Part shown: positions 15,246 to 53,308 of the stretch, piece after piece
Position numbering within the stretch: the stretch's first letter is position 1
Layout: the number at the start of each line of letters is the position of its first letter
NCBI GenBank assembly: GCA_964528595.1
Contig: CAZGTM010000008.1
Location: 1,133 to 65,132, forward strand
DNA: 64,000 bases
Direction: 5' to 3'
From: an uncultured Rhodospirillaceae bacterium
Lineage (GTDB): Bacteria; Pseudomonadota; Alphaproteobacteria; UBA2966
The notes under the pieces: model-generated
The model's database searches: none
What the model was told of the DNA's origin: nothing
The model's input: the letters and a program-made list of their open reading frames with translations, nothing else
Made by a program: the position numbers and the translations under genes

Positions 15246-15818
15246 CTAACGGTCCATGCCGTGGTATTCGGGGTTGGGCATCATGTCGACGGCCAGGGCG
15301 ACGCGGTTGCTCATGTTGAAGAAGCCGGCGACCTCGGCGATTTCCCAGATGTCCGAATCGGAAAAACCGTGGTCGCGCAGACCCTGGCGGTCTTCTTCCG
15401 ACATGTTCTTCGGGTTCTCCGTCAGCTTGACCGCGAAATCGAGCATGGCGCGCTGGCGCGGTTCCAATTCGGCGTTGCGGTAATTCATCACCATCAATTC
15501 GCCCAGCATGGGATCGCCGGAATACTGGCGCACGGCCTGGCCATGGGCGACCAGGCAATAGACGCATTTATTCTCGGACGACACCGCCACGGCGATCATT
15601 TCGCGCTCCAGCTTGCTCAAGCCCCCCTCGCTCAGCATCAACTCGTTGTACATGTTGACGAAGGCGGAAAGCTTCTTCGTGTTCCACGAATAAGCCTGCA
15701 GCACATTGGGAATCATGCCGAGTTTTTCGGTGCATTTGTCGAAGTAGGCCTGCATCTTGTCATCGAGTTCGGCCGGCGGCAGGTCGAGCGCCATGATGTG
15801 GTCGGGCTGTGCGGACAT
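15246..15818 (-). CDS. Carboxymuconolactone decarboxylase family protein (AhpD-like peroxidase-related enzyme)
   Basis: 190 aa with the AhpD-type CxxC motif (ENKCVYCLVAHG). Confidence 0.75.
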   Translation of the reverse strand: MSAQPDHIMALDLPPAELDDKMQAYFDKCTEKLGMIPNVLQAYSWNTKKLSAFVNMYNELMLSEGGLSKLEREMIAVAVSSENKCVYCLVAHGQAVRQYSGDPMLGELMVMNYRNAELEPRQRAMLDFAVKLTENPKNMSEEDRQGLRDHGFSDSDIWEIAEVAGFFNMSNRVALAVDMMPNPEYHGMDR

Positions 15819-18691: not shown

Positions 18692-18800
18692 GAGCGTGAG
18701 AGTAGCGCCTCCCGGCTGTCAAACCCATACCTTTGGGCGTTTTACATTTTGTCGAATAGCGAATGGCGGTACTCTGCCAGCCTTCAAAACGGAGCTTGGA

Positions 18801-19481
18801 ATGACAGAGTACAATTACGCCGATTTCAGCCTGAAGCGCGAGATGCCGCCGTTCGATGAATTCCGCGACCGGCTGCACGCCGGGGAACGGGCGCCGGACT
18901 TCCCGCTGGAGGACCTTGCCAGCGGCGCGACCGTGCAACTGCGGGACTTGTGGAAAAAAGGCCCGGCGATCATCGAGTTCGGCTCCTTCACCTGACCGTA
19001 CTGCGCCATGGCGGCCGAGGCGATGGACGACCTCGCCGACCGCCTGGCGGACCGAGCCGTGAGCTCGGCCTTTCTGTACACTCGTGAAGCCCATCCCGGC
19101 GAAAACTACCGCCACCACACCTCGATGGACGGCAAGCGCGCCAACGCGAGGGCCTTTCAGGAGCATGTGAACCTGAGGCGGCCGATCCTGCTGGACGATC
19201 TCGAAGGCACGGCCCACAAGGCCTACGGTATCCTGCCGAACATGACCTGGATCATCGGCAAGGGCGGCATGATCCTTTACAAGGCCGCCTGGACGGGCGT
19301 CGAAGATGTCGAAGACGCTTTCAACAGTCTGATGGACGGTCACGCCCGGCGCATCAAGGACCAACTGGTGCCTTTCTACAGCGAACGCTTCGCCTGGCGG
19401 ACGCGCGATGAGGACGGCTTCAAGGGCGGCCTGGAACGCGCCGGTCCGCAGGCCGTGTCGGACTTCTACGACAAGGAATAG
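18801..19481 (+). CDS. Candidate selenoprotein: thioredoxin-fold peroxiredoxin/deiodinase-like protein with in-frame TGA (Sec) at codon 18993-18995
   Basis: ORFs 18681..18995 and 19008..19481 share one frame and are separated only by a TGA. Read through, the product is ...APDFPLEDLASGATVQLRDLWKKGPAIIEFGSFT-U-PYCAMAAE... The TGA sits at the catalytic Cys position of the redoxin/deiodinase motif. ATG at 18801 has a GGAG RBS. Confidence 0.6.
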
Positions 19482-40306: not shown

Positions 40307-40741
40307 TTACGTCGTACAGGCTTTGGCGCCGGCCGGGCGTTCGGGCGCGTTATCGAGAAGGCTCTTCAAGGCGCTTTCGCTGGTTTGCGCCACGACGCGC
40401 GCCAGTTCGCCTTTCGGCGAGAGCATGACCAGCGTCGAGCGCCTGACGACCCTCAGCTTTTTCGAAATCGGGGAACCTGCGTGAATATCCCAATCAGCAT
40501 ATATAAAGGCGATGTTCCTGTCGTAGTCGGCGTTGCCTGATCTCAGTTGCCGGATCACACGGACCTGGCGCTGGCAGGTGCCTCACCACTTGGCGCCGAA
40601 ATCAAGGACGACCGAACAGCCCTTGGCCAGCGCCGCATCAAGTGCCTTCGGCGAATAGGGTGTGTCCCCGTTCCCCGCGTTCGCCGCCGTGGCGCCCATT
40701 AGCGCCAGGGCGCCCGCGGCCAGCATTCCAATTTTATTCAA
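40307..40741 (-). CDS. Candidate selenoprotein: periplasmic thioredoxin-like protein (Trx/TlpA-like, CcdA partner) with in-frame TGA (Sec) at 40583-40585
   Basis: Minus-strand frame continuous from TTG 40741 (RBS GGAGGAG 6 nt upstream, 3 nt after the ccdA stop). Read through, the product is (M)NKIGMLAAGALALMGATAANA|GNGDTPYSPKALDAALAKGCSVVLDFGAKW-U-GTCQRQVRVIRQLRSG...VVRRSTLVMLSPKGELARVV... It has a signal peptide and the Trx motif W-C-G-P-C with the first Cys replaced by TGA. The ORF track reports only the 83-aa part after the stop. Confidence 0.6.
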
Positions 40742-40759
40742 TTTCAACTCCTCCCCATC

Positions 40760-41524
40760 TCATATCGAAACGGATAGATCCTGTAACCAGAGCGGCAGGA
40801 TATTCAAAACACGGCCCTCCAGCCAATGGTCAACGCCCAATAAAATGCCCACGCCGACACACAAAAACGTGATCCCCAGGACGGGTTTGGCGCGCTCGGA
40901 AAGGTATCCGAACGCTTTTTGCCGTCGCTGGATGACTTCGCGGGCGCCGAAGGCCAGCGCCAGGATGACGCTGGAGACACCCAGCGCGAAGGTCGCCATG
41001 ATGCCACCGGCCCAGGCCAGGCTTTCCCCTTGCGAGGCCAGCGCGATGGCGCCGCCCAGCGTGGGGCCGATGCAGGGCGACCAAATCGCCCCCAGCAGAA
41101 AGCCGCCGATGAACTGACCGCCGAGGCTGGTGGCCGCGCCGCCCGCCTCGAGTCCGCGCAGACCCGTATCGGCGCGGGCGGCGAATACCGCGGTTAGGGC
41201 CGCAAAGCCGTCATTCAGGCGCGGCACCAAAAGAACCACGCCAAAACCGATCATCAACCAGGCGCCCGTCGTGGTCATCAGGCGTTGATCGAGACCGATG
41301 GACGCCCCCGCCACCAGCACAAACATGCCGACCACGACGAAGGACAGGCTGAGGCCCGCAGCCATGACCAGCGGCCCCCGCCGGTCGGCCTGCAGCGAAG
41401 AGGCCAGCACGATGGGCAGCACAGGCAGAACGCAAGGATTGATCAGCGTCAGCAACCCGGCGAGATATCCCAACACCAGTTCAAGCACCGCAGTCTCCAA
41501 ATTTCGACCGTCAAATAGAGACAT
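40760..41524 (-). CDS. ccdA: Cytochrome c-type biogenesis / thiol-disulfide electron-transfer membrane protein CcdA (DsbD beta-domain family)
   Basis: Two conserved Cys in TM segments: LINPCVLPVLP and AIWSPCIGPTLGGA. Six TM helices. Confidence 0.88.
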   Translation of the reverse strand: MSLFDGRNLETAVLELVLGYLAGLLTLINPCVLPVLPIVLASSLQADRRGPLVMAAGLSLSFVVVGMFVLVAGASIGLDQRLMTTTGAWLMIGFGVVLLVPRLNDGFAALTAVFAARADTGLRGLEAGGAATSLGGQFIGGFLLGAIWSPCIGPTLGGAIALASQGESLAWAGGIMATFALGVSSVILALAFGAREVIQRRQKAFGYLSERAKPVLGITFLCVGVGILLGVDHWLEGRVLNILPLWLQDLSVSI

Positions 41525-52177: not shown

Positions 52178-53308
52178 GTGTCGGTTGTGACAACTGTGCT
52201 AACGGAATCCGGGCCGGTGGACGTGACGGCGGGCCCGGGCGGCGTTGACCAGCTTTGGCTGTCGACGCAGGAGACGGAAGCCGTATCCGGCTGGAGCCTG
52301 AAACCGGAAGGCTTGTGCCGAGGCGACGTTTGCATGCCCGTGCCGGGTGGCCAGGCGGACGAATACGTCCGCGACGATGTCATAAATCTGGCGGCGTTCT
52401 GGCGGCGTATGGACAAGCCTTTGGCCCACAGCCGCAACGGCGAGGTTTGGGCCTTTGGTGAAAGCGCAGGCGATCGGACGGCGACATTGAGATCGCTGGA
52501 TGCGCCGGAGTTTACGTTGCCCGACTTGGACGGCAAGGCTCACAGCCTGTCGGATTATCGCGGCAAGAAGGTTTTCTTAGCGACCTGGGCATCCTGGTGA
52601 GGCTGTCGTGCTGATCTGTCCGTGTGGCAGAAAATTTACGACGATTATCGGGACCGGGACTTCATTTGCATCGCCGTGGCGATGGACAACGATGTTGAGG
52701 CGGCACGCCCCTGGATCGAGGAGGCCAACCCGACCTATCCGGTGCTGATCGATCGCTTTCACCGGCTGGCCGATCTTTACAACATGGTCAACGTGCCGCA
52801 GGCGGTGTGGATCGACGCTGCCGGCAGGATCGTGCGGCCGACCGAAAATGCCGGTGCGTTCGAAGGCTTCCGAGCGTTCGACTTCGAGACCATGACGATG
52901 CCGGACGAGGTCACTGCCACGGTCAAAGGTGCCAAGGCGACCTACGCTGCCGCGGTAGCGGATTGGGCCGAAAAAGGCGCCGACAGCGTTCACGTTTTCG
53001 CGCCGGAGGAGGCCGAGGCCCATCTGGAGGCGCCGAACGAGGATGTCGCCCGAGCGCACGTTTTGTTTCGCCTGGGATTGCACCTAGGTCAGCTTGGCCA
53101 CCAAGATGAGGCCGACGAAGTTTTGGCCCTGGCCAGTGAGCTGCATCCCGACTCCTGGACGATCTGGCGCCAGACCGCCGAAAAACTCGAGAACGGGTTG
53201 GCGGCGGGGCCGGCATTCTGGCAACGCGTTCAGGCCCTGGGTGAACGGCACTACTATCGGCCGGTCGACATGGCCGGCATGCCAAGAGAAGGACCGCCGA
53301 CGCGTTGA
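52178..53308 (+). CDS. Candidate selenoprotein: redoxin (TlpA/AhpC-TSA family thiol-disulfide oxidoreductase) with in-frame TGA (Sec) at 52598-52600, plus N- and C-terminal extensions
   Basis: ORFs 52178..52600 and 52622..53308 share one frame and are separated only by a TGA. Read through, the product is ...LDAPEFTLPDLDGKAHSLSDYRGKKVFLATWASW-U-GCRADLSVWQKIYDDYRDRDFICIAVAMDNDVEAARPWIEEANPTYPVLID... This matches the TlpA/redoxin pattern APxFxLxDLxGKxxxLxDxxGKxVxLxFWASWCxPC with Sec in place of the first Cys. The start is uncertain (GTG 52178 or 52187). Confidence 0.55.

Follow-up and report, generated by a model that had tools for sequence, protein, structure and literature searches.

Does a TGA codon that falls inside the active-site box of a thioredoxin-like reading frame mark the end of a gene, damage to it, or a selenocysteine (Sec)? 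The question is raised by a locus on the minus strand of a 64,000-nucleotide (nt) stretch of DNA from an uncultured Rhodospirillaceae bacterium (the window; coordinates are positions in it), where a frame directly downstream of ccdA is interrupted by TGA at 40583-40585. The reading that best accounts for the locus, to which we assign a probability of about 0.87 from the sequence evidence, is that 40741..40307 (minus strand) is one gene, encoding an exported oxidoreductase of 144 amino acids (aa) with a thioredoxin fold and a W-U-G-T-C active site that would be reduced by CcdA. A first-pass annotation of the window had already proposed a Sec-containing, periplasmic thioredoxin-like partner of CcdA, and the proposal gains support from Cys-containing relatives, from full-length orthologues and from the presence of the TGA in at least 24 contigs.

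A thioredoxin-like gene interrupted by TGA

The frame runs for 145 codons from a TTG at 40741 to a TAA at 40307-40309, its sole internal stop being TGA 40583-40585, and translates as LNKIGMLAAGALALMGATAANAGNGDTPYSPKALDAALAKGCSVVLDFGAKW*GTCQRQVRVIR...ACTT* (asterisks, stops). The first-pass annotation had described it as open save for that codon, with only an 83-aa piece in the track of open reading frames (ORFs), and everything it stated about the sequence here is correct. The mechanical ORF list divides the gene into 40583..40747 (minus strand, 54 aa) and 40307..40558 (minus strand, 83 aa, with a GTG start), as does automatic annotation elsewhere, which gives two ORFs of 47-52 aa and 83 aa in all assemblies examined; no source annotates any TGA form as a single protein, all giving two fragments. 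Reading the sequence also confirms the ribosome-binding site claimed for the TTG: GGAGGAG (40748-40754, minus strand) lies 6 nt ahead of the start codon and is kept in loci L001 and L003, and the longer run GGGGAGGAG begins 3 nt past the ccdA stop codon (TGA 40760-40762). Judged by eye, the product opens with a putative signal peptide (a Lys-containing n-region, a 17-residue hydrophobic core and A-N-A|G at the cleavage site), and comparable signal peptides, keeping an A/V-x-A cleavage motif (V/A-Q-A), are found in all TGA-form and Cys-form homologues.

When Sec is replaced by Cys, the product matches Pfam Thioredoxin with 27.5 bits (cut-off 23.5) over residues 33-130, a match that spans the TGA, and Thioredoxin_7 with 29 bits (cut-off 27). 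Alignment to E. coli TrxA by hhalign (probability 97%) places U53 on C32, C56 on C35 and D47 on D26, the buried Asp, and the best relative in the PDB (5ZPV/5ZF2, E 3e-13) covers residues 19-129. These profile and PDB matches predict a thioredoxin fold with its active site in register.

The 91 residues that follow the TGA, used as query in an exhaustive HMMER search of 1.84 billion representatives, retrieved 112 relatives. The full-length ones (132-146 aa), which their sources name merely 'thioredoxin family protein', share a signal peptide, W-C-x-T-C, VDWD, IPRRSTLV and GRIVAGT, and the short ones (47-85 aa) represent the C-terminal ends of additional TGA forms. Cys is aligned with the TGA codon in about 100 homologues, and at 20 of 20 genome loci, mostly from Rhodobacterales, the aligned codon is TGC or TGT within the motif W-C-x-[TS]-C, which is what the first-pass annotation had expected of relatives adjacent to ccdA. 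Such pairing of Sec with Cys is the classical criterion for calling bacterial selenoproteins (PMC1088965; PMC12013277). A number of very long proteins (1,000-2,100 aa; P0004, P0015, P0032, P0046 and others) contain up to 11 separate stretches that match the post-TGA fragment at its residues ~25-70, and appear, from these matches, to be repeat proteins with a VDWD-like segment.

At least 24 contigs of the window's organism, assembled separately at ENA, JGI and Logan, carry exactly this split gene, which speaks against the sequencing error that the first-pass annotation had named as grounds for refutation; the TGA is not such an error. Four contigs of a sister species have the split gene too, among them the metagenome-assembled genome (MAG) GCA_964343605.1 ('uncultured Rhodospirillaceae bacterium'). 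When genome contigs were scanned, in a collection that does not include the window's own species, the single TGA-bearing genome was a Rhodospirillaceae MAG, which is the nearest genome. Altogether TGA occupies the same codon in about 10 diverged lineages with 37-89% aa identity to the window (Table 1), and no other stop or indel breaks the frame of the TGA forms in the codon alignment. The ratio of nonsynonymous to synonymous substitution (dN/dS) ranges from 0 to 0.36 upstream of the TGA and from 0.17 to 0.47 downstream (Nei-Gojobori, seven pairs, dS often being near saturation); values below 0.5 on both sides indicate that both halves are translated in one frame. Short relatives ending at the TGA position and lacking the downstream thioredoxin half, which the first-pass annotation had named as the observation that would speak against its proposal, did not turn up: all TGA forms keep a selected C-terminal half in frame.

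Two further Cys residues, C42 and C141, are both present in 9/9 typical TGA forms (including L001, L011, L014, L095-L099 and L109) and both absent in L013, in L108 and from the Cys forms; they always occur together or are lacking together. The simplest reading of this pair would be a C42-C141 disulfide stapling the C-terminal tail.

A few database entries read differently at the Sec position. Locus L108 (positions 22-426 of JAZHCE012978421.1, GCA_044232415.1, an 878-bp contig) carries GGA (Gly) there, keeps the conserved core described below as CAGAUCCGUGUGAUC and is without both clade-specific Cys, which would mean that Sec was lost recently or that this one short contig is in error. At L112 (positions 71-340 of ENA ERZ27295809 k141_1024516), the database protein reads W-W-S-T-C, the TGA having been translated as Trp; the DNA reads TGA. 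This divergent, low-GC Sec form is without the C-terminal Cys tail and suggests a second Cys-to-Sec transition in the family. Protein P0102, also W-W-S-T-C, was considered as a TGA form and set aside, as it has a real TGG and no hairpin and lies on a 926-bp contig.

The gene is one of three TGA-interrupted thioredoxin-fold genes in the window, each with its TGA at the redox Cys (18993, 40583 and 52598). The first-pass annotation had counted the TGA studied here as the second at such a site, and the other one does exist at 18993-18995 (plus strand); a third, at 52598-52600 (plus strand), had escaped it. The first of these genes is deiodinase-like (AhpC-TSA 40 bits; NCBIfam deiodinase_rel 65.6 bits, below cut-off), and the 68 nt downstream of its TGA fold with z = -2.1, without a CGUGU loop. 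The read-through product of the third is ...KKVFLATWASW-U-GCRADLSVWQ..., which gene callers split into 127-137 aa and 228 aa; its sequence matches the catalogued 'UGC-containing Prx-like/TlpA' selenoprotein family (Prx, peroxiredoxin). Deiodinase-like proteins and 'UGC-containing Prx-like/TlpA' proteins are both catalogued families of bacterial selenoproteins (PMC2398784; PMC13188914). The three candidate selenoprotein genes, as judged from their sequences, provide good indirect support for Sec decoding in this organism, and certain Rhodospirillales are documented to have the Sec trait (PMC8124441). The window also contains an ORF related to CMD/AhpD at 15249-15818 (minus strand; Pfam CMD 42 bits), which looks full length; the CMD/AhpD family has known CxxU selenoprotein forms.

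A candidate selenocysteine insertion sequence

A bacterial selenocysteine insertion sequence (SECIS) is recognised as a stem-loop that follows the UGA directly and has a G in its small apical loop (PMC1088965, PMC12013277). In the window gene, the candidate is GCC-A-GGUC-[CGUGU]-GAUC-C-GGC, 14-34 nt 3' of the UGA, with a loop that begins 22 nt after it. The first-pass annotation had suggested folding the sequence 3' of the UGA to look for a SECIS. The hairpin that it named, CCUGCCAGCGCCAGG (ACCUG/CAGGU), is not conserved, being broken in 4/7 lineages with 85.7% of cells pairing and no compensation; the conserved one is the next, GGUC-CGUGU-GAUC.

The evidence for this element comes in the first place from synonymous sites. 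A near-invariant 15-nt core, CAGGUCCGUGUGAUC (40553-40567, 16-30 nt after the UGA), has two mismatch cells, and no other 15-nt block of the codon alignment, which covers nine TGA forms over 294 nt, has six or fewer. Here the codons for R-Q-V-R-V-I keep their third bases unchanged throughout the TGA forms, and nowhere else does the gene have six such codons in a row. In contrast, the same codons vary synonymously in 20 Cys forms that encode a similar Q-x-R-x-I, and the 4-bp stem is complete in 0/20 of them as against every TGA form. All stem cells (100%) pair; the lone substitution in the stem, an A for G shared by three lineages, exchanges a G.U pair for A-U and so keeps the pairing. The hairpin is the minimum free energy (MFE) structure, or close to it, in most sequences, and its closing pair has a probability of 0.91 in the window.

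Two further hairpins resemble it in their loops. Counting both strands, the window has just two copies of the 9-mer GUCCGUGUG (0.5 expected), the second of them 18 nt after TGA 52598-52600, where a hairpin of 6 bp (UCUGUC/GGCAGA) could form around an identical CGUGU loop. In L112, an unrelated stem of 7 bp (AACGCAC/GUGCGUU) closes a CGUGA loop that lies 27 nt past the UGA (P = 0.98). Three different stems, in the window gene, the 52598 gene and L112, therefore carry a common loop, C-[CGUGN]-G, at a distance of 21-27 nt downstream of a UGA that is a Sec candidate. A scan for this arrangement over ~0.9 Mb (both strands, frames open on both sides) returned only these two gene families and two evident junk hits.

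Two other models were rejected. The alternative given by RNAalifold for seven sequences, in which the UGA pairs with AUC, has -3.5 kcal/mol and no covariation, the GGUC/GAUC hairpin being the MFE structure in most single sequences; a model patterned on fdhF, in which GGUC would form the loop, needs a bulge in the flanking stem and gets no support from folding. The E. coli fdhF SECIS has an apical loop GGUC with essential G23 and U24, a bulged U17 and a loop ~19 nt after the UGA. The candidate is like it in being a hairpin within the coding sequence 3' of the UGA, with a small G-U loop, an unpaired 5'-side base and a comparable loop distance (22 nt against ~19 nt), and differs from it in its loop, where CGUGU(A/C), closed by C-G, takes the place of GGUC, and in an upper stem of only 4-7 bp; recognition by SelB is predicted here. 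Support for the structure stems from the invariance of synonymous sites and from the two non-orthologous or diverged hairpins, and we consider the assignment of the CGUGU hairpin as a SECIS, which these comparisons favour, well supported but not proven.

Linkage to ccdA and relation to known systems

The first-pass annotation placed ccdA directly upstream, and the ORF at 40760-41524 (minus strand) is indeed a DsbD_TM/CcdA protein (Pfam DsbD_TM 50.5 bits, DsbD_2 25.9 bits) with both canonical Cys (NPC31VLP and WSPC151IGP), ending 17 nt ahead of the start codon of the thioredoxin-like gene. As regards relatives, all 18 informative Cys-form loci and five of the seven TGA lineages have ccdA directly upstream on the same strand, with CcdA orthologues of 47-93% identity, so that the adjacency on which the proposal was built stands for the Cys forms and most TGA lineages and fails as a universal rule among the TGA forms, the exception being the L099/L109 lineage. 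Rhodobacterales and Rhodospirillaceae-like lineages alike keep the order ccdA-trx, the two genes being 20-40 nt apart and the aligned gap having the length of the signal-peptide region. This conserved synteny points to an old two-gene module, equivalent to the DsbD beta and gamma domains on separate polypeptides, and the Shine-Dalgarno sequence 3 nt after the ccdA stop implies co-transcription.

Beyond ccdA, the surroundings vary. In the sister species (L001, 6445-9758), a DUF3299, ZrgA, ABC/FtsX (zinc-uptake-like) cluster comes after the ccdA-trxU pair, without the convergent membrane-protein gene seen in the window; from these differing neighbours it seems that only ccdA-trxU moves as a unit and that ccdA is the sole consistent link. 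In the L109/L099 lineage (L109, 9815-10255; L099, 3001-3408), the gene lies between a GFO_IDH_MocA oxidoreductase and a peptidase M32, beside SURF1-COX3-CtaG-CtaB-COX1-COX2, and these cytochrome-oxidase assembly neighbours hint weakly that the role may be TlpA-like.

Data from the Sargasso Sea and from Global Ocean Sampling (GOS) yielded UxxC thioredoxin-like selenoproteins in 2005-2008, a DsbD-gamma-like group among them, and a 2026 review lists them (PMC13188914). The window protein is like them in its thioredoxin fold, in having a predicted Sec for the first Cys of CxxC with many Cys homologues, in its aquatic or marine metagenome origin and in a candidate SECIS hairpin that closely follows the UGA and has a small loop containing G. 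The domain type that it most resembles is cd02953 (GOS 'Trx-like 2'), which we take to be the DsbD-gamma family; the Thioredoxin_7 hit and weak matches to the gamma regions of DsbD and TsoB serve as proxies for membership. No NCBIfam selenoprotein model reaches its cut-off on the product, and linkage to ccdA goes unmentioned in the GOS and Sargasso selenoprotein papers ('DsbD' and 'CcdA' occur 0 times). By sequence, the gene very probably falls within or next to a known UxxC thioredoxin-like cluster. TsoB (NCBIfam NF045694, rhodanese/DsbD fusion-like) is the sole catalogued selenoprotein on a DsbD architecture, and its thioredoxin-like C-terminal region is matched weakly (18.9 bits); membership was rejected, the cut-off being 805 bits and TsoB being a 572-aa fusion with UxxxxU.

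As is the case for DsbD and for the CcdA-dependent proteins TlpA, ResA, CcmG/DsbE and Etrx, a two-Cys DsbD_TM protein is encoded beside a thioredoxin-fold protein of the CxxC type, in the window a putatively exported acceptor. Unlike DsbD, TlpA, ResA and CcmG, the window protein has a predicted Sec nucleophile, a minimal mature thioredoxin of ~120 aa without the TlpA/ResA insertion, and Ser for cis-Pro. It does not belong with TlpA/ResA/CcmG (cd02966) by profile, scoring 18.8 bits on Redoxin (cut-off 26.6) with no AhpC-TSA hit and falling far below the cut-offs of NCBIfam TlpA, DsbE and ResA. With Edwardsiella piscicida Trxlp (5ZPV/5ZF2) it shares P-Y-S, W-C-x-x-C-x-R-Q-x-R, Q-Q-S-T-L without cis-Pro, and G-E-T-S; Trxlp differs in being a Cys form (W-C-P-V-C) from a gammaproteobacterial pathogen, with neither the Cys42/Cys141 pair nor the C-terminal tail.

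In the mechanism that we envisage, UGA 40583-40585 would be read as Sec by SelB and Sec-tRNA(Sec), recruited by the hairpin within the coding sequence 14-34 nt downstream, and the product would be exported through the Sec translocon, cleavage of the signal peptide leaving the mature protein in the periplasm. Electrons would then pass from cytoplasmic thioredoxin to Cys31/Cys151 of CcdA and on to the U53-C56 selenenylsulfide, the ccdA-trx pair acting as a split DsbD (beta domain plus gamma domain), and the reduced selenol/thiol pair would reduce the disulfides or sulfenates of periplasmic clients. It is from sequence that we infer Sec insertion, export and electron flow from CcdA, whereas a kinetic advantage of selenium, and with it the high-reactivity reductase proposed in the first-pass annotation, is inferred from chemistry. 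Sec at the attacking position is fully ionised, more nucleophilic, a better electrophile and leaving group, and reversible in its over-oxidation, and these exchange properties plausibly matter in an oxidising compartment.

Table 1. Features of the window and motifs of the TGA forms in other lineages (asterisk, TGA)
Feature	Position	Strand	Remark or basis
Thioredoxin-like selenoprotein coding sequence (predicted)	40307..40741	-	144 aa including U53, TTG start, TAA stop
Shine-Dalgarno GGAGGAG	40748..40754	-	Read from the sequence; conserved in L001/L003
Predicted signal peptide of the Sec-translocon type, MNKIGMLAAGALALMGATAANA, cut before GN	40676..40741	-	Inspection by eye
In-frame TGA, predicted selenocysteine U53, attacking residue of U-G-T-C	40583..40585	-	Conservation, Cys homologues, dN/dS
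Codon of resolving Cys56 of UxxC	40574..40576	-	Invariant in orthologue alignment; equals Cys35 of E. coli TrxA
Cys42 codon, specific to the TGA clade	40616..40618	-	Alignment
Cys141 codon in tail AP-x-RP-x-GA-x-x-C, specific to the TGA clade	40319..40321	-	Alignment
Candidate SECIS apical hairpin	40549..40569	-	Conservation and folding
ccdA	40760..41524	-	254 aa (242 aa from later start), stop TGA; Pfam and translation
Deiodinase-like gene, FGSFT-U-PYC	18798-19481, TGA 18993-18995	+	Pfam T4_deiodinase 37.2 bits, above cut-off
Prx/TlpA-like gene, W-U-G-C	52187-53308, TGA 52598-52600	+	AhpC-TSA 67 bits, Redoxin 54 bits across the TGA
TGA form L011			FGAKW*PTCRRQVRVIE
TGA form L012/L099			FTAKW*STCQRQIRVIE
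TGA form L014			FGASW*PTCRSQVRAIK
TGA form L013			FCSDW*YRCIIQVRVIK
TGA form L095-L098			FGASW*STCRRQVRVIG
TGA form L109-L111			FTAKW*HTCQSQIRVIQ
TGA form L112			FHANW*STCSSQKRTV

Competing explanations and what the locus would mean

Several observations weigh against a Sec-containing acceptor of CcdA. No selA, selB, selC (the tRNA-Sec gene) or selD was seen in the regions covered, namely the 64-kb window, a further ~10 kb past its end and the flanks of nine related loci. The product also lacks the cis-Pro that is typical of the fold, R-R-S-T-L aligning with G-I-P-T-L (Pro76 in E. coli) so that Ser stands in its place. The same Ser is present family-wide (IPRRSTL in the Cys clade, QQSTL in PDB 5ZPV, 40441-40446 on the minus strand of the window) and is, from the alignment, a family peculiarity and not a defect of this gene, unusual as it is among thioredoxin-fold oxidoreductases. 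As for the hairpin, its stem has only 4 bp plus 3 bp, with minimal covariation within the family, and the CGUGU-loop hairpin of the 52598 gene is merely co-optimal with a competing fold (P = 0.32). Rfam gives no match at the gathering threshold over the window, and around the TGA only chance snoRNA-like ones at E up to 10; the MFE of segments of 46-141 nt around the TGA is no better than that of shuffles (z ~0), which means that thermodynamics alone singles out no SECIS in a sequence of 61% GC. Finally, two TGA lineages have no adjacent ccdA, and the only family member with experiments, Edwardsiella Trxlp, is described as a translocated effector (PMC6636751).

The last two points, together with the atypical substrate handling that Ser for cis-Pro may entail, speak for a genuine selenoprotein that is not reduced by CcdA, being instead an oxidase, an isomerase or a secreted effector like Trxlp, its adjacency to ccdA historical. 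We regard this as unlikely, as the ccdA-trx order is kept across Rhodobacterales and Rhodospirillaceae-like lineages with CcdA identity falling as low as 47%, the spacing of the Shine-Dalgarno sequence implies co-transcription with ccdA, and the domain is DsbD-gamma-like (the Thioredoxin_7 hit and the weak DsbD and TsoB matches), although the two TGA lineages do sit beside unrelated genes.

Far less probable is a UGA that is recoded as something other than Sec, through near-cognate read-through (Trp, Cys or Arg) stimulated by the hairpin or through lineage-wide reassignment. In its favour, no sel gene was seen in the regions covered, and one database gene call (P0036) does have Trp at an equivalent TGA. 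However, TGA is an ordinary terminator here, ending 18 of the 39 Pfam-supported genes of the window, ccdA included, which excludes a reassignment of the code; all three recoded TGAs of the window fall at the redox-active Cys of thioredoxin-fold proteins from catalogued selenoprotein families (PMC2398784), a signature of Sec; and Trp or Arg at the position of the nucleophile would kill the enzyme.

That the locus comprises two real genes, one ending at the TGA to give a secreted peptide of ~30 aa and the other giving an 83-aa protein from GTG 40558, agrees with what automatic annotation yields in every assembly, and is nevertheless hardly credible: the split would fall between W and the second residue of the W-C-x-x-C box, inside one thioredoxin domain of which neither half could fold alone, the 83-aa piece has neither a signal peptide nor a Shine-Dalgarno sequence, its GTG lies inside the conserved hairpin, and the Cys-form homologues are single proteins.

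A pseudogene or an assembly or sequencing error (a nonsense mutation in a Cys-type trx, or a miscalled TGC) would fit with two short called ORFs that both lack a Pfam hit and with the single-base variants that exist at the Sec codon (GGA on the 878-bp contig, TGG on another), and can be given practically no weight, with the TGA in at least 24 contigs of independent samples and ~10 lineages down to 37% identity, in ENA, JGI, Logan and NCBI sources rather than one contaminated read set, with dN/dS below 0.5 downstream and with the frame otherwise unbroken.

If UGA is read as Sec and the product is reduced by CcdA, a selenol would be placed at the receiving end of the CcdA electron conduit. Current understanding is not overturned by this, since UxxC thioredoxin-like selenoproteins have been known from metagenomes since 2005. 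A more ambitious joint claim, which on sequence comparisons we can put forward only as a doubtful one, is that this would be the first selenoprotein recognised as a dedicated periplasmic acceptor of a CcdA/DsbD-type relay, with a Cys-Cys to Se-S hand-off across the membrane, that the C-[CGUGN]-G pentaloop ~21-27 nt after the UGA would be a lineage-specific SelB element, and that Cys42-Cys141 would be an adaptation to the switch from Cys to Sec.

Every public assembly that was examined, NCBI MAG records among them, has all three TGA-interrupted genes of the window in split or truncated form, which indicates that the selenoproteome of this aquatic alphaproteobacterial group is under-called. The CGUGN-loop hairpin is a concrete and testable SECIS determinant for a lineage without a described one and, if the assignment is true, searching with the C-[CGUGN]-G element as a descriptor could bring to light many selenoproteins of the marine Rhodospirillaceae-like lineage that have escaped annotation. 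Lastly, the Rhodospirillaceae-like and Rhodobacterales forms make up a natural pair of Sec and Cys orthologues, from which it may be learned what selenium buys in an oxidising compartment, such as faster exchange or resistance to over-oxidation.

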